Assembly: GCA_963823335.1 (NCBI GenBank)
Contig: CAWGLD010000001.1
Location: 1,376,001-1,440,000, forward strand
Source: an uncultured delta proteobacterium
GTDB taxonomy: Bacteria; Desulfobacterota; Desulfobacteria; Desulfobacterales; B30-G6
DNA: 64,000 bases
Direction of reading: 5' to 3'
Part shown: one piece after another, positions 1-52,522 of the stretch
How the letters are laid out: each line of letters starts with the position of its first letter
How positions within the stretch are numbered: the stretch's first letter is position 1
The notes under the pieces: model-generated
Told to the model about the DNA's origin: nothing
What the model saw: only the letters and a program-made list of their open reading frames with translations
Databases searched by the model: none
Position numbers and translations under genes: made by a program

Positions 1-1209
1 GGGGGTCTGTTCCTGAGCAATATCAACGATCTATTCGTGGACAAAACGTATTCCAATACGATGTCATTATCGAACCCCACCGAAAAAAACACCTCTTTGC
101 CTTGGACCTGCCCCTTTCAGCACCTCCTCTCACCCGTCTCACGGAGGATTTTACATTGATGGCACGCTGGCCCCTGAGAAAAACCCATCGATACCAGGTT
201 CGGTCGTCCCCGGATGCCAGGATACGTGTCATGGGCAGGCAGGGGACAGCTTGCCCGTCAACTTCCAGAAAGTGGAAATCCTGAGGCGAAGCTGCTGGCG
301 GCGACGTGGATGTCGCGTCTGGGTTCGTCGGAAGCTGTTATGAAACAGGCTATTGAGTTTTTCAGGCAGAACGAATTTTCTTATACACTCGAGCCACCTC
401 TGCTGGGTGAGAATCCTGTGGATGACTTCGTTTTCGGTTCAAAAAGCGGGTACTGTGAACATTTTGCATCGGCTTTTGCCTATTTAATGCGTGCTGCGGG
501 TATCCCGGCACGGATTGTGATCGGATTCCTAGGGGGTGAACGCAATCCTTATGGGAACTATCTGATCGTCAAGCAATACCATGCCCATGCCTGGGTCGAG
601 GTTTTTTTGGACAACCAGGGCTGGGTTCGTGTGGATCCGACGGCGATTGTCGCCCCGGAAAGGGTGTCTCTGGGTCTGGCCGAATCCCTGCTGCCAGAAA
701 ACCTGCCGGAATTTCTGGTACAGGCGGGAGTTGGTGGCATGCGTGCTTATTTTAGAAAAATGGCCTATATGTGGGATGCCGTCAATCTGCGATGGAATGC
801 CTGGTTTATGGAGTATTCCCGTCTTGAACAGCTGCGTTTACTGACGGGGGCCATTTCTAATCTTACCTGGTCTGGGGGGATCTGGATGGTTGGGCTGGGA
901 GGGCTTCCGGCGGTCTTGGCTGTGATGGCCTGGATTCAATTTAAAGGTGCTAAAAAGGCCAGGCATAAGGACACTGTCAAAGAAGCCTATGATTTGTTCT
1001 GTACCAAGCTGGAAGGTGTCGGTATTCGTAGGAAACCGAACCAGGGACCGCTTGACTTTGCCGGTATGGCCGGTTTGAAACGCAGTGATTTGAGAGAGCA
1101 GATTAAAGAGATTTCTCAACAATACATAGCCTTGCGCTACATGGGCAGACAAGCCAATGTCTCTCGTCAGTCTCTTCTCAAGAGGATACGCAAGTTCGAT
1201 CCGAAATAA
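1..1209 (+). CDS. TgpA-like membrane transglutaminase-domain protein (DUF3488/transglutaminase), 5'-truncated by window edge, with a frameshift near 234-244
   Basis: Catalytic motifs GYCEHFASA, HAWVEV and W.RVDPT are in ORF 214-1209. The upstream DUF3488-type sequence (YDVIIEP...LFALDLP) is in a different frame (frame 3, 3-284). Confidence 0.8.
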
Positions 1210-12045: not shown

Positions 12046-12483
12046 TTATTTCAGCGCCACTTTGTCGTTCTTGTTGTGTTTTTTGTTGCGGTTTTCGTCC
12101 GGAACTGCAACACGATCCGCAACAAACTTTCCCTCGATTTTCGTCAATGCTTCCTTCTGCTGGCCATCGATGGAGTGTAGATATATTTCCGTGGTTTTAA
12201 GGTTCTTGTGTCTTAACGTTTTCGATATGGTTTTGAGAGATACTTTTTCTTTATCGGCAAGGTATGACGCCATGAAATGACGAAGCGAATGGAAGTTGAA
12301 AACAGGCCCCTCAAATTCTTTTATCGTTTTCAACTCCGGCGCAAAGGCCCTCTTGCAGATCGACCGCATCATTTTGGGTCGTTTGTGATATCGGGTCTTA
12401 TATTTGGGGTTATAAAATACCCAGGTTTGGCTTTTTCGATTATCCCAAAGCCTCTTTAAGACGTCATATAGATCGTCGTTCAT
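12046..12483 (-). pseudogene. Tyrosine recombinase/integrase C-terminal remnant
   Basis: FHSLRH...LRHKNLKTTEIY (HxxR...H...Y catalytic residues); N-terminal domains missing. Confidence 0.85.
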
Positions 12484-29468: not shown

Positions 29469-30482
29469 CTAATCAGAAACCTGCTCCCAATACTTAGGAT
29501 AGATCAGAATCCCATGGGCCATATTTACATTGAGAGTTCTTATTTCTTTTATGTTTAGCGCCTTCATGAACCCTAACACCAAGGTTAGATTGGATACATC
29601 GGTTGCAGCGTAATCACCGCCGATCTCTTCTTCCGATAGCGCTTGCCGGACTGCCAACGTTCTTTCCACATCAGAAATGGTGTAGGTCTTCCCGTCTTTG
29701 ACACTCTGTTTCCGGACACTGTGGTAATGAACGCCACCGATTCCCAGCACCTTCAGATTTCCGGCCTTTGCTTTGATGACATTCGGAACATGAATTTCAG
29801 CATAATCTCGTGCCAGATTTACGGCTTTGGTGGCTACTGCTTTGCCCATGGGATTGGGAGATTTGACATCCCTTGACGATTTTCCTTGAATGTCGGTGAT
29901 GATCGTATTTTTCATGCTCATGGATGCCAATTCCCCTTCATAGACATCGAATGAATTGTTATCCTTGGCGATGACCATCTGCATGCTGCCGCCACCGATA
30001 TCCCAGACCAAACATTCCTTTTTTTCCAAGTCAGTTTGCGGATATGCTGCCAGAAACCCCAGAATGGCTTCGGTTCTTTGAGATATGATCTGTGTACGGA
30101 TTCCAAGTTCTTTCTCGATTCTTTCCGTAAACATTTTCCCATTGTCCGATGTGCGGAAGGCCGAGGTTGCAACCCCCACGAATTGTTCAGTATTATAATT
30201 TTGAGCGATGTTTTTAAATTGCTGGAGAGCCGTTAGACCTTTTCTTTGAATGTCTTCACTGAATTTGCCCTGCGAAATACCAAGGTCCTCTTTATACGCG
30301 ACGTCTATTTCTTCTTCCGCGAGAATTTGTATCACATGTTGTTGGCATGTATCCACTCTCGCCACTACCATTTTTGTTGTGCTGGAGCCGATGTCGAATG
30401 CAGCCCGATTTACAAGACATTCATCAGCAAATACATTCGTTATCGCCAAAAGCATACAAACGATTATTGTTAGGTATCTCAT
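29469..30482 (-). CDS. Secreted Ppx/GppA-like (ASKHA) phosphatase, catalytic domains only
   Basis: Signal peptide (MRYLTIIVCMLLAITNVFA); AAFDIGSSTTK, VATSAFR, ISQRTEA and WDIGGGSMQ motifs; SD AAGGAGG. Confidence 0.8.
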   Translation of the reverse strand: MRYLTIIVCMLLAITNVFADECLVNRAAFDIGSSTTKMVVARVDTCQQHVIQILAEEEIDVAYKEDLGISQGKFSEDIQRKGLTALQQFKNIAQNYNTEQFVGVATSAFRTSDNGKMFTERIEKELGIRTQIISQRTEAILGFLAAYPQTDLEKKECLVWDIGGGSMQMVIAKDNNSFDVYEGELASMSMKNTIITDIQGKSSRDVKSPNPMGKAVATKAVNLARDYAEIHVPNVIKAKAGNLKVLGIGGVHYHSVRKQSVKDGKTYTISDVERTLAVRQALSEEEIGGDYAATDVSNLTLVLGFMKALNIKEIRTLNVNMAHGILIYPKYWEQVSD

Positions 30483-30544
30483 GATTCCTCCTTTCATTTT
30501 TGACGGTTGCCGAAAATGTCGCCTGACAATTTAGTTCAGTAATA

Positions 30545-30572
30545 GGTATCGAAAGCTATTGGTTATTTTTCG
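30545..30572 (-). promoter_or_regulatory. Island alternative-sigma promoter motif, copy A
   Basis: CGAAAAA-N11-TTTCGATACC on the minus strand, about 60 bp upstream of the Ppx-like gene. Confidence 0.6.
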
Positions 30573-30628
30573 GTTTTATTTCATGAGAAATGAAAGTGGA
30601 ATAAATGGCTTAAAGAGAATGGAAAATG

Positions 30629-32830
30629 TCAAAATTCTGCGAGGATTTCCTGGGCAACAGGAGGGAAAAACATGACATGGTGTTGGTCTCCATCAACAAG
30701 AAATATGTCGACAAATCCCGACCTCTCCAGAGCCCTTATCATACTGACCATAATGCAAGGTTGGGTTTCGTCATTCGGCACAATGCCCACATCATTCAAA
30801 TTGGTTAAAATAACAAAGGGTAATTTAATTGATAGAGAGGGGCTAAAGGCTCCGCTGGGCACATTCCCAAAAGTGACTTTTGCTTTACGGGCGGCCTGCT
30901 GCAAAGCGTTTTCATATAAATTTAAACGGAGCGAATCTGAAAAGCTTTTAGGACGATTGTGGGTCTTGCAGGTTCTTGAAAGAATCGAACTTCTCCACGT
31001 TTCGCGAATATTCTTTGCTGGATGATAGTAAATATTTGAGAAAAGTTTATTTGAAGGCGAGAGTAAAAATAAGAAATTCCGCAGCCATGGCTCTTGACTA
31101 AGGGCTTCAGAGAGTCGATTTTTTAATTCATCGGCCTTTTCATCAAATTTAACTGATGTCAGGTCTGCCTGTGTAATCTCTGATCTGTGTATACCCTTTG
31201 AATCTTCACTTTCTAGGAGATGATACATCAACCATTCATGAATTCGCCATTCAATGAGCCGATCCGTACTCAAATAAATCGGCTCCAAATGATGATATTC
31301 ATAGCTTTCGATATTGGTTTGCGCATAGCCTCTGAACCCTTCTCCACGCCCGGCAGCTATCACTGCAACTTTTGGGTTTTCTTCTTTATACGCGCTGAGC
31401 AACTCAAGAAGTTTTTTTGAAGAAGAAGGTGCAACTTCATCCAAGGAGTCAACAATGATAGCGGTAAAATCCATCTTGCTACTGATTTTTATTCTTTCTC
31501 CTTTGATGTCGTAAAAAAAACCATAGCTTATTAATAATTGGCCGAGGGTCTCGGTAGCGCTTTGCTTGGTTTCAAATAGATCTGAATCCAATCTTGGAAG
31601 GCAGCTGATAGCGACACTATTAATTATGAGATCATCCTCCATGGTTGAATGCGGGGAAGGCGTTGGTTCCTGCCTGCATTCAGGATCATCTTTTCGATTT
31701 TGAGCCCGAAAGGATTTGTCGAGATCAAGCATGGCTAATTTGTTGTTATTTGAAGGGCGCTCAGGATCGATTGCCGGACATGCCAACCATTTTAAAAAAG
31801 TAGATTTCCCCGTACCCGGTCCACCGGCGATCAATACAATTTTGTTGTTGGAATTATAGGGGTAAGTCTTTCCGTTTCTAATAGCCTCCGCAATGGTAGC
31901 AAGTGCCGGCTGATTTTTGGTATAGAGGCGGGCAAAATGTATGGGAACACGAACACCGCTGATAGATTTCACGAAAAGCGGTATATCATCGAAGCGCTGT
32001 TTATCGCCAAGGTATGTTAAATACTCCTGTTGCGCTGCTTGATATTGTTCTTTGTAAAGAAACGCATCTGCTTCACACTTGGGTGGGGGCTTCTTATCAA
32101 AAGATGGCTTTATCAGCAAAAAATAGACACCTGTTGACAGGAGGAGGAGAACGATCGCGGTAAAGAATAATTTTATTCGTCTATCGGAAGATTGTATTCT
32201 TTGATCTCCTGAGACATTCTCTGAAGCTGAATGTGTTTCCCCTCGAGCCGCCGGAGTTTTTACAGGAAGTAATTTGTTTATTGCTTCATCCACCGTTAAA
32301 ACCGATATAAGCTCTATTCCTTTTTGTAAGGTGAGAGCCTTTTTATCCGGTTCAATCTCTTCTTCATTCGCGGCCGGATAGAAAAATTTGTCCCCCTGTT
32401 GCAGGCAATCAATAGCGGCATCAAGCTTTTTGTTGATGCCATTAACCCTTCTGACCTTACACCCTGTTTCATCGATCGTGCCGGTTGCAGCAATCGAGCA
32501 TGTAAGGGATTGCCCCGTTTTGGCTCGATAAATCTCCTGGGCGAATTTCAAAGAAAAACCAAGACCCGCACTCGCCCCCAAAACTTTTGTGTTTACATCT
32601 GTATCGTCAAACCGGCACCGAAGATAATAGTCCTCTCTTTCGCCAATATAGTTCAATCTTCTGAGACTCTGGTAAGCACAATGGATCCCCTCGTCAGCAG
32701 AATTGCGAATTTGGGCATCTGATAGACTGGCGGGGAAGTCGATTTTAATGCGACACCCGGGATCGGAATCGTAGAATGAGTAAACTAACCGATTGGACGT
32801 CCCATCATCAAAGAGTGCATAGATATCCAT
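30629..32830 (-). CDS. Fusion of Lon-type (S16) Ser-Lys protease domain + single TM helix + P-loop (STAND/NACHT-like) NTPase
   Basis: GASAGL/IAATGTID/VNGINKKLDAA/YPAAN align by eye with [30 protein letters not shown] of the Lon in this window. TM segment LFFTAIVLLLLSTGVYFLLI; Walker A GGPGTGKST; Walker B IIVDSLDE. Confidence 0.8.
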   Translation of the reverse strand: MDIYALFDDGTSNRLVYSFYDSDPGCRIKIDFPASLSDAQIRNSADEGIHCAYQSLRRLNYIGEREDYYLRCRFDDTDVNTKVLGASAGLGFSLKFAQEIYRAKTGQSLTCSIAATGTIDETGCKVRRVNGINKKLDAAIDCLQQGDKFFYPAANEEEIEPDKKALTLQKGIELISVLTVDEAINKLLPVKTPAARGETHSASENVSGDQRIQSSDRRIKLFFTAIVLLLLSTGVYFLLIKPSFDKKPPPKCEADAFLYKEQYQAAQQEYLTYLGDKQRFDDIPLFVKSISGVRVPIHFARLYTKNQPALATIAEAIRNGKTYPYNSNNKIVLIAGGPGTGKSTFLKWLACPAIDPERPSNNNKLAMLDLDKSFRAQNRKDDPECRQEPTPSPHSTMEDDLIINSVAISCLPRLDSDLFETKQSATETLGQLLISYGFFYDIKGERIKISSKMDFTAIIVDSLDEVAPSSSKKLLELLSAYKEENPKVAVIAAGRGEGFRGYAQTNIESYEYHHLEPIYLSTDRLIEWRIHEWLMYHLLESEDSKGIHRSEITQADLTSVKFDEKADELKNRLSEALSQEPWLRNFLFLLSPSNKLFSNIYYHPAKNIRETWRSSILSRTCKTHNRPKSFSDSLRLNLYENALQQAARKAKVTFGNVPSGAFSPSLSIKLPFVILTNLNDVGIVPNDETQPCIMVSMIRALERSGFVDIFLVDGDQHHVMFFPPVAQEILAEF

Positions 32831-32835
32831 AGGTT

Positions 32836-33378
32836 CTATCTGTCGCCTGGTCGGACTGTTAAACATTTAAGGTTAACTGCATCCAGATTCTCTATCTCCT
32901 GAGAAGCTTTACCATGGAAGATGATACCTTCAAGACAGATAAGGCCCTGCCCATCCAGTAATTGGACGGACTTTCCTTCCAATGTCTTTTGGTAGCCTTT
33001 TCCCACCTCTAACACCACAAGACCCTTATCTGTTTCATGAATATTCCGTCTTATCGTAACCGAATATTTACCTCCCTCAAGTCGAAACTTCTTTGGCCAC
33101 TCTGTTTCTGAGGTAGCTGCCTTGGGCAGCGCAAAATCCCAGGCTTCGGCGTCTTTCCGGCACTCGATTAAATCTTTGATTTCCTGAAGACATGCGGGAC
33201 ACCTTGTCAGGTGGTTCAAGTGCGAGTCTTCCAATTCGATGCCCTGGGGTTGGATCAGCAGCTCATACAGCTCAGCAGAAGGTATATGTTTACCTGCATC
33301 TCCATTCAAACCATAGGCTTGCCATGTTTCTAAAGCTTCTTTAAGGGTAATTCGTTTATTCATATTTGTGTCTTTCAT
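32836..33378 (-). CDS. Zinc-finger (ZAS-type) anti-sigma-like protein with soluble C-terminal beta-rich domain
   Basis: HIPSAELYEL...HLTRCPACLQEI (H...HxxxCxxC), directly downstream of a sigma factor; no TM helix. Confidence 0.75.
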   Translation of the reverse strand: MKDTNMNKRITLKEALETWQAYGLNGDAGKHIPSAELYELLIQPQGIELEDSHLNHLTRCPACLQEIKDLIECRKDAEAWDFALPKAATSETEWPKKFRLEGGKYSVTIRRNIHETDKGLVVLEVGKGYQKTLEGKSVQLLDGQGLICLEGIIFHGKASQEIENLDAVNLKCLTVRPGDR

Positions 33379-33412
33379 TACAAGTTTAATTACAATGTAC
33401 CATTTAATCTGT

Positions 33413-34177
33413 TTAATCTGAAAAAATTTCTATAATGTCCGTTACACACCATCCTTTGCCTTCAAGGCAGTACTTCATCTTTCCCCTGGCTTTTATTTCG
33501 AGTCTGTGGACCTTATTAATGTCTATGGTAAGAATCTGAGCTGTCTTTTTAAGCGTTAACTCTCCTAAAGATCTTAATGACAAAACGGCTCTTTCATAAT
33601 GCTTAAGGGCATTTTTTAAACATTCATCCACGTCCTTCCAAAGTTCCCTTTTTGCTATTTCCGTTTGGGGGTCAGGGTTTTCAAAAGCGGGAAGCTCCTG
33701 TGTAAAATTCAATGGCCTCTTTTCGCCGGGTGGATATTTTGCCTCGAGGGAAAAACCAATTTTTTTAAGTCCCTGCAGTCTTCGCAATTCATTTTCCGAG
33801 ACATCCAAAGCCTCTGACAATTCAAAAGTCGAAGGTTTCCTATTTAAAGATTGAATTAACAATTTTTCAGCCTGATCTAACGCTTTTACAGCTGCCCTGT
33901 TTTTTTGGGTCAAGGGATCTTGTTTTCGTAGATAATCTTTAATAGCCCCATCAATGTAGAGACTGGAAAAGGTAGAAAAGGAAACACCTCTTCTGGGATC
34001 ATATTTGTTAGCCGCTTTTACCAAACCGATAAACCCTTCTTGAATAAGATCATTCAAATCGATTTTATTCCTGGCCGCTTCTGGAAAGTTATTATATAAT
34101 TTCTTGGCCTTATAGACAGCCAGTCCGTAGTAATCATCCAAATCAATGATTTGTGAAGAGGTCATGTGTCTTTTCAT
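33413..34177 (-). CDS. Sigma70-family alternative sigma factor, FliA/WhiG (group 3)-like
   Basis: Region 2 DLIQEGFIGLVKAANKYDPRRGVSFSTF...IDGAIKDYLR, region 3 LNRKPSTFELSEAL, region 4 HTH LTLKKTAQIL...VHRLE. Confidence 0.9.
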   Translation of the reverse strand: MKRHMTSSQIIDLDDYYGLAVYKAKKLYNNFPEAARNKIDLNDLIQEGFIGLVKAANKYDPRRGVSFSTFSSLYIDGAIKDYLRKQDPLTQKNRAAVKALDQAEKLLIQSLNRKPSTFELSEALDVSENELRRLQGLKKIGFSLEAKYPPGEKRPLNFTQELPAFENPDPQTEIAKRELWKDVDECLKNALKHYERAVLSLRSLGELTLKKTAQILTIDINKVHRLEIKARGKMKYCLEGKGWCVTDIIEIFSD

Positions 34178-34190
34178 CCTACATATTGAT

Positions 34191-34219
34191 GTTATCGAAC
34201 GGATTCAAAAAATTTATCA
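34191..34219 (-). promoter_or_regulatory. Island alternative-sigma promoter motif, copy B (autoregulatory)
   Basis: TGATAAA-N12-GTTCGATAAC on the minus strand, immediately upstream of the sigma gene. Confidence 0.65.
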
Positions 34220-34624
34220 GTTTTCATAAAAAAATACTTGAAAGAGTTTTTTTGATGCCTTCCCATGGATTTTCTTGTTTAAATAAATCGTGTTCTTTTC
34301 AGACTATTGGTATTGGGTCTTTTTGCGCTGCTACATGTCAGCTGAACGGGAATGCCTGGATAAGAAGAAGGTGTATTTCCAATGTTAGGGGAGCAACACA
34401 ATTATTACCTTATCATGCTTTATGCGTGCAACAACAGTCATTAAGGTACAGATAGTGTCTATTGTGTAGTTAAGATGTAACCTATTGTCAATATTAAAAT
34501 AAATTAGAAATGCCGCCAAAGACCCTCGTTATGTTCCCAAGATTCACGTTGTTACCGGCCCCTTAATTCAGATAGCCGCTATTAGGAAATAGTCCCATCT
34601 TATCGTTTATATTTAAGGCGGCAG

Positions 34625-34652
34625 TGAAAAAACAAGAAACTGGTTCGATAAC
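34625..34652 (+). promoter_or_regulatory. Island alternative-sigma promoter motif, copy C
   Basis: TGAAAAA-N11-GTTCGATAAC, about 90 bp upstream of the divergent operon. Confidence 0.7.
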
Positions 34653-34738
34653 CATACCTGAAGAAACGCATTGCCTGAAAGTTCATCCTGACAAATTTTC
34701 TGAAAAATTAAGGCACAGTTGATCGAGGAAAAATTTAG

Positions 34739-35618
34739 ATGAACAGCTTATTAGACGAAACTGCCATCAGAAAGAAGCTGCGATTAGATGCGCTTCAACA
34801 TCCCATGACGATTCTTCCCGCAGCTTTCTGCATTTTGTGGATCATCTATTGGGTGTTGTTAGAAGATATTATTGGCGGAGCTGGATACATCCTCATAATC
34901 ATTTTATCTTCAGCAGTGGTTGCTGCAGGCTCCTTCCTCTGGCTCTACTTTCATTCAATATGAAGATGCATATGCAAAAAGAATTAGCGAAATTGCTTAT
35001 CTCCAGGATCAGATTCAAACAGAGAAAAATGATGCAGATATTAAGCACTTGATCGTGGCTGTTCGTACCGGATTCAAAAATACGAATACAACAGATGGCC
35101 TCAATGCATTGACCGATTTGGTTCACGAATATCAAAAGATTCTCCAGGTTGTCGAATATAAGAAAGAAATCGATCCACTGGCACTCATTCATATTCCAGC
35201 CCTGGTAGAAGAGACATTCTTGCAAGGATTGAGTGTTCTCTCAGACGTCTTAGAGCTATCAAAAATTATACATAAACCTGACATAGATAATCTTGAAAAG
35301 AAATTAAAAGCCACTGAGAACGAAATCAAGTCATCGCGCCAGCATAAAGCTAAATCGGCACTTCTTAGAATTAAAATGGCCAGGGCCGACTCATATAAAG
35401 AAAGGTTGGATATGATAAATCAGCAGGTGTTGCGACATGACACCTTGCTTTACCAATGCACGAGTTGTGAAGCATCACTACATAAAACCCGTGTCGAGTT
35501 GACCGCACTTAAAACAGAGAATTCGGATACGAGCATAAATGAAGTAACCGAAACGCTTCGGCTGACTATCAAACAGGCACAGGAAATTCAGGAAGAGCTC
35601 AAGAGGCTTAGCCTCTGA
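34739..35618 (+). pseudogene. Two-TM + coiled-coil membrane protein (XpaC-like position before vWA/TelA), +1 frameshift near 34949
   Basis: ORFs 34739-34963 (2 TMs) and 34920-35618 (helical) join as LYFIQYE if one T is removed from CTCTACTTTCATTCAA. Confidence 0.7.
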
Positions 35619-35675
35619 CATGAGCCTCGTATTCTTTAAACAGGGGAATATATCAATCATGAAAGGAGGTGTACC

Positions 35676-37517
35676 GTGAAACGACTTACCAGAGCGATCA
35701 TTTTGGTACTTATTTTTGCGACGATTGGAGGGATTCTATTTCGTTTCCTCTGGCCTGGCGGGGAGCGCCTTACTATTGTTCACTGGACTACCGGTCACCT
35801 GATGCGAACCGGTTTGTTGCCGGAAATGGCTGCCGAGTTCAACCGAACTGTCCACAGAACACGTTCCGGTAAACGGATAGAGATCAAGGTTATCTACTAC
35901 GGTTCATCGGAGCAGGCAGAAGACCTGCTCTCTCGGGTAACTCGCGGCGTGCCTGTCGACCGAAACCGTCCAAATCCAACGATCGTCACACCGTCGGCAG
36001 CTCACTGGCTTGTGCCGGTCAATCATGCGGCTGGCCGCACCATCGTAGACCTCAAAACCGCTAAAAGCATCGCGCGGGCATTTATTGGCATCGTAACTTA
36101 TCAGGAAATGGCGGAATGCCTGGGATGGCCAGATAAAAAGATCGGTTATGCTGATATCGTAGCTCTGCGAAACGATCCACTCGGCTGGGCCGGTTATCCC
36201 TGTGCCAAGGCCGAATGGGGGCAACGCCCGCTCGTTGCCTACACCGATCCCATTACTTCAAGCACAGGTCGCAGCGTTTTGTTTACCCTGTACGCCATCG
36301 CCGCTGGAAAAGCTCCAGATCAACTGACCGTTTCCGATGTCAGAGATCCTAAGGTGGTTGACTACGTCAAACAATTCCAGAAACTGGTAGATCACTATAT
36401 GATCGGCACGACAGTATTGAATACAAAGATTCATCAGGGCCCTCGTTTTGGCCACTTCTTTCTCATGCCCGAGGACAACCTTATCCACCTGTATGAGGGG
36501 ACCGAACGCGCCTTCATCAATGGCGTAAAAGTGAGTGCTCCGCCCATCGAACAGCCGATGGTCATGATGTACCCGAAAGAGGGATCTATGGCGCGGAACA
36601 ATTGCGCCGGTATCGTTCAGGCATCCTGGGTGACTGAGGATCACGGGGAAGCAGCACATAAATGGGTTGACTTCCTCCGCGAAGATGACCAGCAGCGTGC
36701 CTTTATGAAGGCAGGTTTTCGGCCAGCGACGAATCTTCCCCTTTCGAGAACCATTAGCGGAAAATATGGATTGGATCCGACCCAACCGACCATTGAGTTC
36801 AATCCTGCGCTGATTGACCCTAAAGTTGCAGCTGCGATTGATGACGCCTGGGAAGACGTAAAAAGGCCTGCCATCGTAACATTCGCCATGGATACATCTG
36901 CTTCCATGCAAGGAGATAAGCTTACGCAAGCAAAAGATGGCATGATCCGGGCCCTGGACAGCATGGCAAAGAATAACCAAATAGGTTTCATTTGCTTCGA
37001 TTCGGAAGTTACCACTCGTATCCCAGTAGGTCAGCTTCAGAGGAACCGTTTCACGATTGCAAATACCTTAAAGGGGTTGCAGGCGCAAGGCGGAACGGCA
37101 CTCTACGACGCGATTAAAACGGCGGTCGAGATAACAGATGGAGCGCCCGGAGATGAAAATGCCATTCGTGCCGTGGTCGTCCTGACGGATGGTCAGGCAA
37201 ATCGAGGTGCGACTGCGTTACACGACCTCATACAGCTGATGTCTAATAGCGAGATCCCTATCCAGGAATTCAGAGGCTTTCAAGAGGATCAAACAGCTAT
37301 AGATGAACAGGGAAGACCCGTTAACAGGAAAAAAATTATCGGTACGACTTTGAGCATGGAAACCAACCACTCGGTCCAGATCTTCTTCATCGGGATCGGT
37401 GAAGATGCAGACATGGAGGTTGGCCGAATGCTGGCTGAGGCAACAGGTGCAGAATTCCAGGGAACGACCCAAAAGGATTTGGCTGGAGTACTCGAAGAAT
37501 TCAGTAAATATTTTTAA
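35676..37517 (+). CDS. Membrane-anchored solute-binding-protein + von Willebrand A domain protein
   Basis: N-terminal TM, SBP-type DPITSSTG/YPKEG/GFRP motifs, and vWA MIDAS DTSASM...GGTALYDA...VLTDG. Confidence 0.88.
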   Translation: MKRLTRAIILVLIFATIGGILFRFLWPGGERLTIVHWTTGHLMRTGLLPEMAAEFNRTVHRTRSGKRIEIKVIYYGSSEQAEDLLSRVTRGVPVDRNRPNPTIVTPSAAHWLVPVNHAAGRTIVDLKTAKSIARAFIGIVTYQEMAECLGWPDKKIGYADIVALRNDPLGWAGYPCAKAEWGQRPLVAYTDPITSSTGRSVLFTLYAIAAGKAPDQLTVSDVRDPKVVDYVKQFQKLVDHYMIGTTVLNTKIHQGPRFGHFFLMPEDNLIHLYEGTERAFINGVKVSAPPIEQPMVMMYPKEGSMARNNCAGIVQASWVTEDHGEAAHKWVDFLREDDQQRAFMKAGFRPATNLPLSRTISGKYGLDPTQPTIEFNPALIDPKVAAAIDDAWEDVKRPAIVTFAMDTSASMQGDKLTQAKDGMIRALDSMAKNNQIGFICFDSEVTTRIPVGQLQRNRFTIANTLKGLQAQGGTALYDAIKTAVEITDGAPGDENAIRAVVVLTDGQANRGATALHDLIQLMSNSEIPIQEFRGFQEDQTAIDEQGRPVNRKKIIGTTLSMETNHSVQIFFIGIGEDADMEVGRMLAEATGAEFQGTTQKDLAGVLEEFSKYF

Positions 37518-37590
37518 GAAAAGTAAGAAAACAGCATTGTTCCAAAAGGAGTTGTCGATAAGAAAATATCATAAATAGGAGGCAAGTAGC

Positions 37591-38760
37591 ATGGTTGCAA
37601 AAAAACAACACAACCGAAAAACATTGGATTCACTTTCTGTTTTGCCGGCTTTTGATGATCTATATGATGCAGATGGAAAGCCTCAGTCGGGATCCCAGAG
37701 ATTTGTCAAGGACATGGTGAAAGAACTCGAAGATGAATCAAAAGTGCTTGTCGCGCAATTGCGAGAAGCGAGCGGCAGCCACGAGCTTAAACTGATCGAC
37801 AGAATTGTTAGTATTGGTCTTAAAGCACAGAGAACTGCCGGGGCTGATTTGGATCTTTTACGGACGCGTATTCGGGATATGCTTACACAGGGGAAAACAT
37901 CCGATAAACTTTCAAACGAGCTTATTGGATTACGTATGGCGCTCAACGCGATAAATCCGCATGAGCTAATTAGAAATAATTTTGCTTCCAAATTGCTGAG
38001 CAAGTTTCCTTTCTTCAAGGTGTTGGATCCCGGTATAAAGGCGCTTAAAAAGATGGCAATCCGGTATGAATCGGTGTCCAATCAGGTTTGGATAATTGAA
38101 AAAAAGCTGCGTGAAGGACGGCTGATGCTTACCAGGGATAATCTTGAATTGAGAAAGCTTTATGAACAGATTGAAGAAAAACAGTCGCCTGTACAGAAAA
38201 ATGCATACCTTGGTGAATGTATTGTACAGCAACTGAGGGATGTTATCGAGCACACACAAGATCCGATGAAAAGGAACAGGCTGCAGAATGCCATGCATGA
38301 CGTGTCCATGAGGGTTCAAGACTTACGCACAATGGAGGAAATTTTTCTCCAATTTTTTGTCAGTATCGATTTGACCCGACAAAACAACTCAAGATTGGGC
38401 CAGGCTGTGGAACGAACACTAACACTTGCTACCAATCTCGTGGCAGTCGGCCTCGCAATCCAAACCGCTCTTTTCCGGCAAAAAAGAGTCATAGATGCCA
38501 CCCAGAAGACGCGGGAGTTTTTAGGAAATTTAATTGTCGCAAATGCCGCAACGATTAAACAGCATACCACCGATATTGGCGATGTTTACAATCAACCGGC
38601 AATAGCAGTTGAAAAAGTTACCAAAGCACATAGCGAAATTGTCGAAGCCCTGGAAATTGCAATTCAGCTTAAGCAGAAAGGCATCGATAATGCCCAAGAA
38701 AACATTGGGAAACTAACAAAAATGTCATCCGAACTTCAGAAGAGGATTGGCGTGCGGTGA
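37591..38760 (+). CDS. telA: Toxic anion resistance protein TelA family
   Basis: All-helical ~390-aa protein with RYESVSNQV..IEKKL..G...L.RDN..L and ALFRQK.V..A...T..F...LI..NA..IK TelA-like pattern. Confidence 0.82.
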   Translation: MVAKKQHNRKTLDSLSVLPAFDDLYDADGKPQSGSQRFVKDMVKELEDESKVLVAQLREASGSHELKLIDRIVSIGLKAQRTAGADLDLLRTRIRDMLTQGKTSDKLSNELIGLRMALNAINPHELIRNNFASKLLSKFPFFKVLDPGIKALKKMAIRYESVSNQVWIIEKKLREGRLMLTRDNLELRKLYEQIEEKQSPVQKNAYLGECIVQQLRDVIEHTQDPMKRNRLQNAMHDVSMRVQDLRTMEEIFLQFFVSIDLTRQNNSRLGQAVERTLTLATNLVAVGLAIQTALFRQKRVIDATQKTREFLGNLIVANAATIKQHTTDIGDVYNQPAIAVEKVTKAHSEIVEALEIAIQLKQKGIDNAQENIGKLTKMSSELQKRIGVR

Positions 38761-38785
38761 AAAAACAGACAAACGGTTCGATAAC
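38758..38785 (+). promoter_or_regulatory. Island alternative-sigma promoter motif, copy D
   Basis: TGAAAAA-N11-GTTCGATAAC whose first three bases are the telA stop codon; about 60 bp upstream of 38846. Confidence 0.7.
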
Positions 38786-38845: not shown

Positions 38846-39166
38846 ATGGTCCACAATGTCAACTCTGCCGGTATGATTATGGCCATGCATCTGGTGGCAA
38901 GTTTTCTGCTGCAGGCGTTCGCAGCCCTTTATGGCCTCATTGCAACCAAGGAATTGATGGGAGGTATGGTGGGTTTTTTCGCAGGGGGTTTGATAATGAG
39001 AGGTCTTTTCCGGAATTTGATCCCTACGAAATGTCCAAATCCAGCTTGCGGCGCCTTTACGGCTTACCAAAGCGGCTCCCAGCCGCTCACGTATGTATGC
39101 AGAACGTGCGGTCATGAGCATGTCACCACCATTTCTGAAGGAGGCAGTGAAAATTTTCACTTCTAG
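38846..39166 (+). CDS. Small two-TM protein with C-terminal Zn-ribbon
   Basis: Two hydrophobic segments followed by CPNPAC...CRTC; SD AAGGAG. Confidence 0.65.
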   Translation: MVHNVNSAGMIMAMHLVASFLLQAFAALYGLIATKELMGGMVGFFAGGLIMRGLFRNLIPTKCPNPACGAFTAYQSGSQPLTYVCRTCGHEHVTTISEGGSENFHF

Positions 39167-39575: not shown

Positions 39576-39638
39576 TGAGTCAATTATAGTCTATTATCGA
39601 CTCAAAATCTGAGCTGATAAAAGGAGCGAAATGACTCA
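39576..39638. promoter_or_regulatory. Tandem 29-bp inverted-repeat operators upstream of the Fic gene
   Basis: TGAGTC-N17-GACTCA (39576-39604) and TGAGCT-N17-GACTCA (39610-39638, covering the SD and ATG). Confidence 0.6.
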
Positions 39639-40776
39639 AACAATACAATACATTTGGCAGCAGCCGTCATGGCCGGAATTTTGTTGGGACAATGCAGCCC
39701 TTCTCAAGCAAATAGGTATTTGTCGATTCCAGCAGGGTTCTTTGTTGACTCAAATGAAGGATTTGGGGTTCGATGTCAGCCAGCAGGCCAGAGCCGAAGT
39801 GTTGATCGAAGAAGCCCTCAAAACGTCCGAAATTGAAGGCGAACACCTGGATCCCAAGGCCGTTCGATCTTCAGTGGCCCAACGTCTTGGTTTGCCGACA
39901 GCCGGTATGGCCTCGATAAAAAATCAGCAGGCCGACGGGGTCGTTCAAATTTTGCTGGATGCTACGCAGGACTTTAAACAGACGCTGACTCCTGAACGGC
40001 TGTTCGGTTGGCATGCAGCTCTATTTCCCACTGGTTATTCAGGAATGCATAAGATTAAAGTTGCATCCTGGCGCGATGATCGCAATGGGCCGATGAAGGT
40101 TGTATCGGGTCCTATTGGACGGGAACAAACCCATTATGAAGCGCCACCTGCAGAGCGTTTAGCAAACGAAATGAACCGCTTTTTCTGCTGGTGGGAGGAA
40201 AGTCGTAAAGAAATGGACGGCCTCCTTCGGGCCGGCATGGCTCATCTGTGGTTTGTGGCGGTGCATCCTTTTGAGGATGGTAACGGACGAGTTGCCCGGG
40301 CGTTGACAGAGATGGCCCTGGCTCAGGATGAAAATCTGTCGACACGATATTATAGCCTCTCTTCACAGGTCATGGCAGAAAGAGAGGACTATTATAAGAT
40401 TCTCGACCGTACCAACAAGGGAGAAGGGGATATAACCGATTGGATGAAATGGTTTCTGGAATGCATGTCCAGAGCTATCCTAAGCTCAAACAGACGCCTG
40501 TCCAATGTGATGTTAAAGGCCAGGTTCTGGAGGTATTACGCGCAGACCAAGCTAAAAGAACGTCAGAGCAAAGTCATCAATCGCTTACTCGATGCTGGCC
40601 CCGGCGGTTTTGAGGGGGGTCTGACAAATCGAAAATATGCCGGCATGACCCATGTCAGCAGGGCAACGGCTCAAAGAGAATTGGCAGACCTTGTTCAAAA
40701 GGGCATTCTTCGTCCCAATCCAGGTGGTGGTAGGAGTACAAGCTATGACCTTTGTTGGGATGAGTTTTCAGATTGA
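39631..40776 (+). CDS. Fic family protein (DUF4172-Fic-HTH)
   Basis: YIWQQPSWP N-terminus, TSEIEGE, intact HPFEDGNGRVAR motif, C-terminal HTH (SRATAQRELADLV, GGGRSTSY). Confidence 0.93.
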   Translation: MTQTIQYIWQQPSWPEFCWDNAALLKQIGICRFQQGSLLTQMKDLGFDVSQQARAEVLIEEALKTSEIEGEHLDPKAVRSSVAQRLGLPTAGMASIKNQQADGVVQILLDATQDFKQTLTPERLFGWHAALFPTGYSGMHKIKVASWRDDRNGPMKVVSGPIGREQTHYEAPPAERLANEMNRFFCWWEESRKEMDGLLRAGMAHLWFVAVHPFEDGNGRVARALTEMALAQDENLSTRYYSLSSQVMAEREDYYKILDRTNKGEGDITDWMKWFLECMSRAILSSNRRLSNVMLKARFWRYYAQTKLKERQSKVINRLLDAGPGGFEGGLTNRKYAGMTHVSRATAQRELADLVQKGILRPNPGGGRSTSYDLCWDEFSD

Positions 40777-41140: not shown

Positions 41141-42997
41141 TTATTTCAAATGCTCTTCCGTATATAAGGTTAGCTCGATCATCCGCTCAAGAAGTTCATC
41201 CACCTGCATTCCCGGAAAATTGTGACGAACTAACTCTTTGCAAAATAGGCTGCTAATATAACGGAGCTTTCGTCGTTTCTGCTTTCCAGCATAGACAAAG
41301 TCCCTATGACCGTTATTTACAATAATAACGTTTTTGTCCACATCGAATCGTGAGCGCCACATTTCACCCGCTGCACGACGATAGGTATACCCTGGCAGTC
41401 CTTTATTTTTCTTTCCGGATTTTGATGATTGGTCCAAAAGTGAATCGGTGATGGTTATCAGGGCTTCATCGGTGCACGTGGTATCAGACTGATGAACTGT
41501 GACTTTTAACGTGGTCAGGCAGGGTTCCGCGGGGGCAACAAAGATGACCGATTCATTGCTGTTCTCAATAAGTTGGCCTTCTCCTTCCACTACCTCCCAT
41601 AGATATTTCAGATTTTCCAAAACGATCCTTCGAGACCGGTCTCTGCAAACGACCCTATATTTTTTGCGATTGTCAACCGAAACAACACTTGATTTTGGAG
41701 AAATCAGCGTACTGAACAGAGGACCGGCATATTCAAAAAATTGTTTTTTGGTGCTGTCATTGTCACCCGGTTCAAGTACATCTTCAGAATTTTTATTTCC
41801 ACGGTTGTTATCTTCTCGGGGGTCTCCAGATATTGGCCCACTGGTAAAAAGATTTCCCGGCATTTTTTGAGGCTTTCCCGCATGAATGTCAAACCAGTCG
41901 TATTCCTCTTGTGGCAACCGTAAAAACGCTTCTTTGAGAGCACGCTGTACCCTGCGTAAAATTCGGCGACTTGATCTCTCCTCTTCGGCTTTACGCTGGT
42001 CTTCGATAATCTGCTGCAGATGACTTTCGACGGATTCCATCGCACGGTAAAAAGCATCAAAACGGTCATCGCGTAATACTCCCTGACGTGTCCCCGGAGT
42101 GAGATTTAAAAACGGCGCATCCACAATGCCTTGCAGGTACCCAGCCGTCCAAGGCTCTTTTTGAATGTGTTCGAGTTCAGTAATTGACGGTAGTACCCGC
42201 GTACCGCGACGATACAACCCAATACGGTTTGAGGAGCCCGGATCGCTGAGGTAAAGCTCCAGATAGATATCACCGTACACCGTCTCGGCCGGCTTCAAAT
42301 TATGGAGCAGTCGTCCGCTAAATTGACGTGGGACAACGATAAGTTCCTTTCTACCTGTATGATCAACAATCTTTACCGTCACTTCAGTTGATTTTATGCG
42401 ATCACGAAGTTCGGATGCGAGATACCGCTGAATCTTTTCACCGGTCAAAGACCGCAATCCAGGAAGTAGCGGATAGATCGTCAGGTCTGTTCCCTTAGAG
42501 GGGAGCAATACCCGTTTTTTTGTGACGGTAAAATTAGGTGAGTCTTTAGCCATCATCATTTCGTAGGTTTTTCCATCAGCACCACAACTGGTCATTCTTA
42601 GGTTCTGGCCGACCGTCCAAAAACTTAGAAGACCTATGCCGAATTCTCCCTGAATTCCTGCCGCTCTTTCCGACTTGAACTGTCTCTTGATAGAATCACA
42701 AATATGGGTTGCCACACGCCGGAAATCGGGAAGCCCTTGTGCATTTCTTGGAATTCCCTCCCCATCGTCACTGACCTTGATATAGAATTCACCCTTTTTT
42801 TTCCCTCTTACAATGACGATCTGTTTTGCGCCTGCGTCAATGCTGTTTTCCACAAATTCGGCCACAGCTTTCAGAGGGTTGGCTTGAGATTTGGCGATGA
42901 TGCTGATGGCATTCCAATGATCGGCGATGCGCAACTTTCCAGTACGGATACCTTTTTTTATCTTTTTACGTACGGATTTTGACATTGTTGACTCCAT
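41141..42997 (-). CDS. GHKL (HSP90/MORC-like) ATPase-domain protein
   Basis: EFVENSIDAGA, DDGEGI, GEFGIGL and GT Bergerat-fold motifs; uncharacterised C-terminal region. Confidence 0.82.
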   Translation of the reverse strand: MESTMSKSVRKKIKKGIRTGKLRIADHWNAISIIAKSQANPLKAVAEFVENSIDAGAKQIVIVRGKKKGEFYIKVSDDGEGIPRNAQGLPDFRRVATHICDSIKRQFKSERAAGIQGEFGIGLLSFWTVGQNLRMTSCGADGKTYEMMMAKDSPNFTVTKKRVLLPSKGTDLTIYPLLPGLRSLTGEKIQRYLASELRDRIKSTEVTVKIVDHTGRKELIVVPRQFSGRLLHNLKPAETVYGDIYLELYLSDPGSSNRIGLYRRGTRVLPSITELEHIQKEPWTAGYLQGIVDAPFLNLTPGTRQGVLRDDRFDAFYRAMESVESHLQQIIEDQRKAEEERSSRRILRRVQRALKEAFLRLPQEEYDWFDIHAGKPQKMPGNLFTSGPISGDPREDNNRGNKNSEDVLEPGDNDSTKKQFFEYAGPLFSTLISPKSSVVSVDNRKKYRVVCRDRSRRIVLENLKYLWEVVEGEGQLIENSNESVIFVAPAEPCLTTLKVTVHQSDTTCTDEALITITDSLLDQSSKSGKKNKGLPGYTYRRAAGEMWRSRFDVDKNVIIVNNGHRDFVYAGKQKRRKLRYISSLFCKELVRHNFPGMQVDELLERMIELTLYTEEHLK

Positions 42998-43260: not shown

Positions 43261-43337
43261 TGGTCGGGGCGGTAGGATTTGAACCTACGACTTCCTGCTC
43301 CCAAAGCAGGCGCGCTGCCAGGCTGCGCCACGCCCCG
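43261..43337 (-). tRNA. tRNA-Pro(TGG)
   Basis: CGGGGCG acceptor stem, anticodon arm CCTGC-TT TGG GA-GCAGG, GTTCAAATC T-loop, encoded CCA. Confidence 0.97.
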
Positions 43338-51026: not shown

Positions 51027-51410
51027 TTATAAAAAGTTTTTAAGATTGCTCTCCTCTAATAGCTTCAGAACTTCCTGCGTACTGGTATAATTCCCTTCAA
51101 CATATATTTCAGTTGTAGTTTGTCTTCTATGTCTCAAGACCTGTTGAACTTTCTTAATGGGGATCTTTTGCAGGTCATTTAAATATTTTGCAACGGTATG
51201 TCTAATGTCGTGATATCCAATTGGTTCAACGTCGGCGGTTCGGCACAGCGTCTTTAGAGTTTTTCTGCGTTCAACATACCGCATACCATAATATTTACTT
51301 TTCGGGTTCATGTGGCAAAAAACATAAGGGCTCGATGGATGCCGATTTTTCCATTGCCACATAAGCAGCTTATATAAATCATCGTTCATCCATAAATTTT
51401 CGTAGACCAT
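51027..51410 (-). pseudogene. Tyrosine recombinase/integrase C-terminal remnant next to tRNA-Asp
   Basis: YHDIRH...LRHRRQTTTEIY; shares MNDDLY...W.NR....VF with the 12046-12483 relic. Confidence 0.82.
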
Positions 51411-52522
51411 TTGTGGGTACAACTGCTTCACATATCGCTCGGCGCTACCGAAGACAATCTGACATTCTATCCGGAATGCTGATGGTTGGCATGGGATTGA
51501 TGTTACTGGTAAAAGCCGCTGGAATCTTGACATAGGTTTAGCGATTCGTTTTGATGGAAGATGCTTGAGGGATTCAACACTTAGCCTGCACCACCTGGGC
51601 GAGGTTTTTTCAGAGCGTCTCATCTGCCCAAACCATCATCAGCATCACCACACAGCTTCTCCATTTTGGACTATAATCTTGGCTCTTTCGTAAAGGTCAA
51701 TCGGGCTGGTATCACTTTTTGCGGCAATATCCTTAGAACAGGCACGTATTGATATTGAAGAACCGTTGAGGATTCATGCTTAACAGAATACTGAATTGAA
51801 TCTTATTGATGTTTTTTCATGCAAAGGTTGGAGCTACAGTGCTGATGCGCTCAAAGGGCAGGAAAAAGATATAATACCAAGGTGAGTTCAACTGGGGAAG
51901 CTTCATGTTTAATATTGGCGATTTTTCCAATTATGCTGCTATAGTAAATATCATTTCAAAGCTTTAATGTTTGGACATACCCAAAAACGAAAGATTTCAT
52001 CATTCTCGGCGACCCCTCCTAATTAAAGCTTATGTAACAAAGTATATCTGTCCATGTCATATCAATCAATTGGCAAAATTCAGAGAATCTTCAGTTCGCG
52101 GTAAAAACTACATTTAGATGACTTGATATGTTAAGGGCAATTCTGGCTCAAAGAGATTTGCCCTTTTTGCTTTTGGGTAAGAAAGTTGATGTTTGTATAG
52201 AAGGTCAGTTTTGTGGTATTTATGTATATGTCTGAGTATCGCAAGTTCTTAGAGGCTCAGGAAACCGTGAATATTCTCCATTAAATCATTACGCGACTGG
52301 TTTATCAGATATACTTATAGCCCGGAATGTAATCATCACCCACCCAAGATTTCACGTGGCCACAATATATAGTAGTTCTTCGAATTAGATCTCGATCCGA
52401 ATATTGGTATGCAGAATTATTAAGTGAAGGCATAGTCCCCGGACTGACCTTCAAGTTGCCTCTCTGTCGGATCGGTTGCTTCCACACAGAAATACCAACT
52501 ATCGCTGCCAGCCATAATGTCC

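Follow-up and report, generated by a model that had tools for sequence, protein, structure and literature searches.

The DNA analysed here, called the window throughout, is a stretch of 64,000 nucleotides from an uncultured delta proteobacterium of the Desulfobacterales (C1:1376001-1440000 of an assembly of 4,367,180 bases in 11 contigs, 93.9% complete). Four intergenic sites in the window, designated S1 to S4, carry a bipartite promoter-like motif and are located on an island of about 10 kb that also encodes a FliA-like sigma factor. These sites are likely promoters for RNA polymerase that bears the island sigma factor, whose activity would be gated by a putative anti-sigma factor of 180 aa and a Lon-domain protein. 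The genes of the sigma factor and of these two partners are referred to below as the triad.

The bipartite motif and its occurrence in the genome

The sequences, coordinates and strands of the four sites are those reported in a first-pass annotation of the window. S2 (34191-34219, minus strand) reads TGATAAA-N12-GTTCGATAAC and lies 5' of the operon encoding the sigma factor, the 180-aa protein and the Lon-domain protein. S3 (34625-34652, plus strand) reads TGAAAAA-N11-GTTCGATAAC and lies 5' of a divergent operon for a membrane protein, a coiled-coil protein, a protein with solute-binding-protein-like (SBP) and vWA domains, and TelA. S4 (38758-38785, plus strand; TGAAAAA-N11-GTTCGATAAC) starts inside the TelA stop codon and precedes the gene of a Zn-ribbon membrane protein, while S1 (30545-30572, minus strand), a weak copy reading CGAAAAA-N11-TTTCGATACC, precedes a Ppx/GppA-like gene. 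Transcription would start at about 30538 for S1, 34184 for S2, 34659 for S3 and 38792 for S4. The consensus deduced from the sequences is TGAWAAA at about -34 to -28, a spacer of 11-12 nt and then GTTCGATAAC, in which CGATAA would form the -13 to -8 core. As had been annotated, the sites are upstream of genes and oriented towards them; the distance of 13 nt that had been given for the sigma gene is replaced by 25 nt, from the -10 block to ATG 34165. This ATG is probably the start codon of the sigma gene, since most homologues have their first residue at position 5 of the annotated protein. For the Ppx-like gene, 30483 is the probable start.

The window contains five copies of the short pattern TTCGATAMC, where 1.02 would be expected, and none of 100 shuffled sequences reached five copies; the fifth copy, at 6979, lacks the upstream half of the motif. 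In the whole assembly TTCGATAAC alone has 55 matches, and the full pattern of the first-pass annotation has four on both strands, namely S1 to S4. The latter count is circular, as the pattern was derived from these very sites. A non-circular scan was therefore made with weight matrices trained solely on the sites of other, metagenomic loci. With a matrix of 10 foreign sites and spacers of 11-12 nt, S4, S3 and S2 were ranks 1 to 3 in the genome (28.3, 28.3 and 27.8 bits), and rank 4 reached 23.0 bits, 4.7 bits below this group. With a matrix of seven foreign sites and spacers of 10-13 nt, S4 and S3 were again at the top (30.0 bits), S2 scored 29.6 bits, the top four were completed by a site outside the island whose spacer is 10 nt (C3:83627, 29.6 bits), and the next match scored 23.7 bits. 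The motif is thus not frequent in the genome, and, as described below, it is also present at related sigma genes; a scan of this kind, of the genome and of homologous loci with a motif model, had been proposed with the first-pass annotation, and its outcome agrees with what was claimed there.

The four sites had been presented as equals. This holds for S2 to S4, with their top ranks, and S1 is much weaker: it scores 16.3 bits with the 10-site matrix (rank 58 of the 900 matches above 10 bits), against 27.8-28.3 bits for the others, and deviates from the consensus at three conserved positions (position 1, -16 and -8). These figures would suit an explanation, unlikely as a whole, in which S2 to S4 alone are functional and S1 is a chance or decayed look-alike; so would the metagenomic locus L009, where a Ppx-like gene is placed directly behind an SPFH gene without a site of its own. 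About 58 matches as good as S1 are found in the 8.7 million strand positions of the genome, which makes a chance occurrence in a 131-nt gap and in the correct orientation improbable, and no housekeeping-type promoter was found in that gap.

The off-island site, TGATAAA-N10-GTTCGATAAC (C3:83627-83653, plus strand, equivalent to L016:5628-5654), is located between an EF-G gene and azlCD, and its score matches that of S2. In six genus relatives without the sigma factor, the orthologous place reads GTTCGTTAAC with a different upstream half, and the site may have been captured recently or come near to the motif by chance. The non-coding sequence immediately on its 3' side is strongly conserved and contains a hairpin with compensated variation in the stem, for which an Rfam search around the site gave no match. 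A further high scorer, C5:467860, was judged to be a chance match: it coincides in part with both the start codon and the ribosome-binding site of a Zn-ribbon gene that lies behind a strong TTGACA-N17-TATATT promoter.

Inheritance of the motif with the sigma factor and its relation to sigma-28 promoters

A word-based search of 5.8 billion proteins returned 25 relatives of the sigma factor at 43-96% identity, and eight metagenome contigs encode such a relative. No further ones were found in genome contigs (searched by sigma alignment), in viral contigs or in plasmids. The motif is present 5' of the sigma gene in all seven loci having upstream sequence, with sigma identities down to 39-40%; these are the window, L008, L009 (the same sequence as L010), L011, L012, L013 and L015. 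The -10 block in these loci reads GTTCGATAAC, GTTCGATAGY or GTACGATAAT, and the spacer is variable. In an intergenic alignment of five loci, GTTCGATA is invariant and the remainder has mostly diverged. The sites have an orientation and no palindromic symmetry, and in six loci the -10 block is separated by 24-27 nt from the start codon of the sigma gene.

A second site, facing the divergent operon, was found in L008, L009 and L015. The cargo of this operon differs from locus to locus, being SPFH/Band-7 and Ppx-like proteins in L009 and proteins without an assigned family in L015. The Ppx-like homologue within the motif-driven operon of L009 is 41% identical to that of the island. In L015, a third site (1164-1192, minus strand) precedes a Zn-ribbon membrane gene. 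The sigma gene of this contig is reduced to about 50 residues (L015:2182-2352) and is followed by unrelated minus-strand genes, with all three motif sites retained; either decay of the locus or a chimeric assembly of the contig could account for this.

Two more distant triad loci, L026 and L027, were reached through the 180-aa protein in metagenome-assembled genomes (MAGs), one of the Latescibacterota and one of the Gemmatimonadaceae, with sigma factors 34-37% identical and a G+C content of 62%. These two loci contain GAAAA[ACT]-N14/15-CGATAA three times against 0.002 expected under a first-order Markov model, and any such match appeared in 3 of 1500 simulations. The region 5' of the Lon and sigma genes of L027 falls outside the contig. 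The order of the triad is identical in L009, L010, L011, L012 and L013, and the triad is rearranged but complete in L026 and L027.

The sigma factor (33413-34165, minus strand) has 250 aa from ATG 34165, its open reading frame (ORF) reaching to 34177. It is composed of three domains, regions 2, 3 and 4, without region 1.1 (length 250-254 aa). Pfam assigned 55.3 bits to region 2, 25.7 to region 4 and 24.1 to region 3, slightly below the cut-off of 25.3. The best of 83 NCBIfam families was FliA/WhiG TIGR02479 with 121.8 bits, under the family cut-off of 189.6 bits. Among solved structures, the family profile has its best relatives in the FliA proteins of E. coli (6pmi, 87.6 bits) and Aquifex (1rp3, 86.8 bits); with cyanobacterial SigA at 86.6 bits, the protein is barely nearer to FliA. 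In an HMMER alignment with E. coli FliA, D81, R84, R94 and T69 are kept, and the first three, which are invariant, correspond to positions of E. coli FliA for which -10 contacts have been named.

In the sigma-28 fliC promoter, GCCGATAA occupies -15 to -8 and TCTAAAG occupies -36 to -30, and the GC of the 'extended -10' is read by R97 of P. aeruginosa FliA, as stated in one report (PMC12784957). A second one (bioRxiv 10.1101/2020.01.02.893370) gives C(-13)G(-12)ATAA as the conserved sigma-28 core, together with the residues of E. coli sigma-28 that contact it. On the published numbering, the island motif is G(-16)TT-CGATAA(-8)-C, and the TGAAAAA of the N11 sites falls at -34 to -28. Compared with sigma-28 promoters (TAAA-N15-GCCGATAA), the C(-13)G(-12)ATAA(-8) core is therefore identical, and the A-rich -35 block of the N11 sites is in register, with TGAA here and TAAA there at -34 to -31. 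The GC extended -10, in contrast, is replaced by TT in this clade and by TA, AA or CA in distant loci, and residue R91 of FliA (R97 in P. aeruginosa) is Q in the island sigma factor and S in L012. Judged from the alignments, the GC-reading arginine and the GC extended -10 are both absent here. L012, with S91 and TA at -15/-14, had hinted that residue 91 covaries with these bases; this was rejected, as L026 and L027 keep Q91 yet have AA or CA. R91 was reportedly the subject of a study by Koo et al. in 2009.

Together with the geometry of the -35 and -10 blocks, the core agrees by comparison with published sigma-28 promoters, and this supports the motif as a sequence variant of the sigma-28-type promoter that travels with the island sigma factor, as had been proposed. 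The proposal that the island sigma factor itself reads the motif, with autoregulation, is borne out in part: the motif stands 5' of the sigma gene in every close relative where this could be seen, and the reading step would follow from this association. The idea that the variant insulates the island from a flagellar FliA regulon could not be upheld. Neither a FliA above the family cut-off, the island sigma factor itself being the best FliA-like match, nor a match to FHIPEP (FlhA) or flagellin was found in the 93.9%-complete genome, so that 'FliA insulation' is without object in this organism. No FlgM-type partner turned up, although FlgM itself was not searched for. The pattern TAAA-N14-16-GCCGATAW occurs 10 times in the genome against about three expected by our own estimate, and two of the 10 matches share an identical sequence, from which a third differs by one base. 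Unlike those of the FliA regulon, the putative targets here are TelA, vWA and membrane proteins, and not flagellar ones.

The motif could also be a promoter read by a host chromosomal sigma factor, housekeeping or another alternative one, with the targets of the island sigma factor elsewhere. GTGAAA-N17-GATAAC does match TTGACA-N17-TATAAT at four of six plus four of six positions, and a conserved TTGACA block, described next, indicates that housekeeping-type elements are present in the locus. We nevertheless consider this reading very unlikely. It predicts targets elsewhere, yet at spacers of 11-12 nt the genome has no other good site, and the motif follows the island sigma factor across organisms, other phyla included. 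Moreover, the invariant positions (TTCGATAAC) exceed the housekeeping hexamer, the final T of TATAAT is absent, and a consensus scan called a sigma-70-type or housekeeping-type promoter at none of the sites in the three intergenic regions.

The block in question, TATTGACAATAGGTTACAT (34475-34493, minus strand), corresponds to the conserved stretch TATTGACAAT. It is near-invariant in five loci, with two variable positions and diverging flanks, is located about 290 nt 5' of the sigma start and is unique in the window at three mismatches or fewer. It contains a perfect TTGACA and the palindrome TATTG-N-CAATA, and from this sequence it may be a candidate housekeeping -35 element, that is, part of a basal sigma promoter, or an operator. 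The conserved intergenic stretch downstream of it has no stable RNA fold (z-score +1.09), and the idea of a structured RNA was dropped.

Still a little less probable is an operator function of the motif itself, with binding of a repressor or activator in place of a promoter element. Its bipartite form with fixed spacing would allow this, and at the divergent-operon sites the spacers are rich in A and alike between loci. The conserved triad, however, encodes no regulator besides the sigma factor, and the sites are asymmetric and always point to the downstream gene. In addition, the 3' block is the sigma-28 -10 core at the correct distance from a -35-like A-rich block, and the distance of 24-27 nt to the sigma start codon is constant. 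Promoters of the island sigma factor thus remain the preferred explanation of S1 to S4.

Partner proteins, the proposed switch and the island

The sigma factor is probably gated by an anti-sigma factor and a Lon protease, two partners that the first-pass annotation had not seen. The 180-aa protein (32836-33378, minus strand) is regarded as a probable anti-sigma factor from its alignment and from a model of its complex with the sigma factor. In an alignment of 20 sequences, H31, H56, C60 and C63 are invariant, forming H-x3-C-x2-C. This is the zinc anti-sigma (ZAS) motif. In the model of the single chain, four helices at the N-terminus are followed by a disordered linker (residues 80-91, per-residue model confidence (pLDDT) below 50) and then by a C-terminal beta-sandwich. 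The complex model scored 0.74 (0.74, 0.73 and 0.74 in three runs) and the best control 0.01, a mark attained by 116 of 157 solved complexes and by 2 of 215 mismatched pairs. The runs share at least 69% of their contacts, the pLDDT of the partner is at least 73, and residues 8-80 are placed between sigma regions 2 and 4. This modelling supports binding of the sigma factor by the 180-aa protein. A Foldseek search with the whole 180-aa model, whose helical N-terminus was barely covered, gave no match at E ≤1e-3, and its VIA matches were generic beta-sandwiches with Z ≤6.2. In one look-alike Atlas cluster, zf-HC2 was present on 15% of the members (score 0.89), which is a lead only.

The Lon-domain protein (733 aa; 30629-32830, minus strand) has an N-terminal Lon protease domain, a hydrophobic segment and a P-loop NTPase-like C-terminal part. 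Its first 190 residues or so are conserved in all loci, and the remainder is variable. A profile of the N-terminal part matches the proteolytic domain of A. fulgidus Lon (1z0b) at 3.2e-6. The structural model (pLDDT 91.8) matches the catalytic domain of E. coli Lon (1rr9) in Foldseek with E 3.2e-10, TM-scores of 0.67/0.73 and 197 aligned columns. Across 40 sequences, the serine of the catalytic pair Ser87/Lys135 does not vary, and the lysine is kept in at least 90%. The N-terminal domain is a Lon-protease fold. The family comprises at least 496 sequence clusters at E ≤1e-3 and 58 at E ≤1e-30. Among the 77 members scanned out of 150 listed, the C-terminal domain was DUF4384 in 44, nSTAND1 in eight, PD40 in four and a weak Lon_C in four. 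In the island protein, a single hydrophobic segment (residues ~217-240) is followed by a C-terminal part with the intact Walker A motif GGPGTGKS.

A switch of the following kind can be proposed. In the resting state, the 180-aa protein would hold the sigma factor between regions 2 and 4 of the latter. The Lon-domain protein would respond to a signal at its variable C-terminal part by cleaving or removing the anti-sigma factor, a cleavage for which the disordered linker of the 180-aa protein is the one hint. The freed sigma factor would then read S2, resulting in positive autoregulation of the sigma/180-aa/Lon-domain operon and thereby in co-amplification of inhibitor and protease. It would also turn on the membrane-protein/vWA/TelA operon from S3, the Zn-ribbon membrane protein from S4 and, more weakly, the Ppx-like gene from S1.

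Several points weigh against this reading of the sites and of the switch. As to the sigma factor, its FliA/WhiG match falls short of the family cut-off, its profile barely separates FliA from SigA, and a promoter that depends on its own sigma factor requires some basal source of it. As to the sites, S1 is a poor match to the motif matrix, and in L026 the motif was not found 5' of the Lon and sigma genes within the available sequence, so that not all loci may share the autoregulation. The 180-aa protein matched no Pfam family at E ≤10 in any of four members, zf-HC2 (PF13490) included, and had no sequence match to any solved anti-sigma factor, and its complex model may pass through likeness to solved sigma/anti-sigma pairs. 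A lone membrane segment in front of a P-loop domain makes an odd topology: it divides the Lon part from the NTPase-like part, and the NTPase would be extracellular unless the segment is not membrane-spanning. Finally, the RNA-library contigs give neither molecule ends nor strand, may include DNA carry-over and are uninformative on transcription starts. Ten runs of such libraries contain 5-14% of the sampled words, and four of them yielded short contigs that are 95-99% alike and cover portions of the genes for the Lon-domain protein, the anti-sigma factor, the sigma factor, the vWA protein and TelA.

The contig X1 (645 nt), from one of the RNA libraries, matches the 3' end of the TelA gene and S4 and then continues with 113 letters unlike the window from 38830 on. 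The divergence begins 16 nt before the Zn-ribbon start, and a relative may carry a different cargo behind the same promoter.

Regarding the island as a whole, the flanks match the closest genus relative at 92-96% identity up to 29447 and again from 41127, and between these positions only a SoFic gene was matched, in other genomes of the genus. Since the flanks match and the interior, SoFic aside, does not, the four sites are on what is, by this comparison of sequences, an island of about 10 kb specific to this strain. In a search of nine genomes of the same genus, 14 of the same family and 400 further ones of the phylum, the sigma factor was found in none.

The other island genes encode the presumed cargo. 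The Ppx/GppA-family protein, of ASKHA fold (Pfam PF02541, 2.6e-27), is encoded at 29469-30483 on the minus strand, and the remaining genes are on the plus strand. The operon behind S3 begins with a 74-aa two-helix membrane ORF and a 232-aa coiled-coil ORF (34739-35618), followed by the gene of the 613-aa protein with SBP-like and vWA domains (35676-37517) and that of the 389-aa TelA-family protein (37591-38760; PF05816, 3.3e-40). The 106-aa membrane protein with a C-terminal Zn-ribbon is encoded at 38846-39166. The 74-aa and 232-aa ORFs share 44 nt in different reading frames, and TTG is the only start codon of the latter. An RNA-library contig of depth 2.3 is one base short at 34946, which would fuse the two ORFs into a protein of about 290 aa; the pair may be one gene split by a 1-nt frame difference, an assembly error, or true two genes. 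The TelA, SPFH and vWA families of the cargo suggest, by analogy, a role in membrane stress or defence.

The island adjoins a gene for a SoFic-type Fic/DOC protein (39631-40776, plus strand; PADLOC SoFic, 2.3e-43) and one for a HATPase_c_3 protein (41141-42997, minus strand), after which tRNA-Pro is found (43261-43337). These surroundings look like a defence-island-type neighbourhood. Run on the triad, PADLOC matched no defence-system model except for a partial sigma-region match to MzaA. Elsewhere in the window, two short minus-strand ORFs (12046-12483 and 51027-51623) contain only the C-terminal part of a phage-integrase domain, and the second adjoins tRNA-Val and tRNA-Asp.

Relation to known protease-gated sigma switches

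The 180-aa protein shares several features with the ZAS proteins of the RsrA and ChrR class, namely H56-x3-C60-x2-C63 together with H31, a gene directly 3' of the sigma gene, and a helical part that in the model lies between sigma regions 2 and 4. It differs from them in that its partner is a three-domain sigma factor and not one of the extracytoplasmic function (ECF) type, and in that zf-HC2 gives no match.

The arrangement of the triad resembles the CalpL/CalpT/CalpS system, described as an N-terminal Lon protease with a sensor, a cleavable anti-sigma factor and a sigma factor (bioRxiv 10.1101/2024.05.08.593097; PMC11229360; 10.1101/2025.07.01.662501). Both consist of three linked genes for a Lon-domain protein, an anti-sigma factor (a probable one here) and a sigma factor, with the Lon protease at the N-terminus and a sensor-type domain at the C-terminus of the first. 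The 180-aa protein, like the CalpT anti-sigma factor, is in two parts, with an N-terminal part that would bind the sigma factor and a small C-terminal beta domain. The latter domain of the 180-aa protein is weakly similar to a CalpT fragment (8b0u; Foldseek E 1.7e-2; VIA Z 5.5, rmsd 3.4, 70 aligned), a resemblance that is tied with many unrelated beta-sandwiches. The SAVED sensor and the type III CRISPR context of CalpL/T/S, in contrast, were not found here: the Pfam matches of the island proteins and of 36 other window ORFs include no SAVED or cas family. Instead, the C-terminal parts are a P-loop NTPase, DUF4384, a PD40 propeller or nSTAND1. The sigma factor here is three-domain and FliA-like rather than ECF-like, and a membrane segment is present.

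Protease-gated sigma control is also found in the type III-E system Csx29 (TPR-CHAT)/Csx30/RpoE. DUF4384, one type of C-terminal domain in Csx30, recurs in the Lon-domain family, and a TPR-CHAT gene, the Csx29 type, adjoins the triad in L013, where it is located directly 3' of the sigma/anti-sigma/Lon-DUF4384 genes (L013:3795-6164, plus strand). The protease family, the anti-sigma factor and the class of the sigma factor are different, and there is no CRISPR context here. In a narrow search of the literature, no description of the sigma/180-aa/Lon-domain triad was found.

The triad could tentatively be seen as a CRISPR-independent, membrane-anchored relative of CalpL/T/S, a possibility to which we give somewhat less than even weight. 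A sensor-activated Lon protease would destroy a zinc-type anti-sigma factor and free a sigma-28-like factor, which would amplify its own operon and, through a promoter dedicated to it, switch on a cargo for membrane stress or defence that can be exchanged. If true, this could be a widespread signalling design, given the size of the Lon-domain family, with targets readable from a promoter motif. The parts of the proposed switch could be tested separately in a heterologous host, the input being the Lon-domain sensor, the latch the anti-sigma factor, the amplifier the autoregulated sigma factor, and the output the TelA, vWA, Ppx-like and Zn-ribbon proteins. On the preferred explanation of the sites, a FliA-type sigma factor would serve a non-flagellar role where no flagellar genes were found. 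The retention of the -10 core with an altered reading of the extended -10 bears on the evolution of sigma-28-type specificity, and the self-contained pair of sigma factor and promoter is a candidate orthogonal expression part. The CalpL/T/S descriptions, in the parts of them available, name no target promoters, whereas here a probable promoter and a list of targets are legible in the DNA, this list being self-contained, as its three to four units lie together on a single island of 10 kb.

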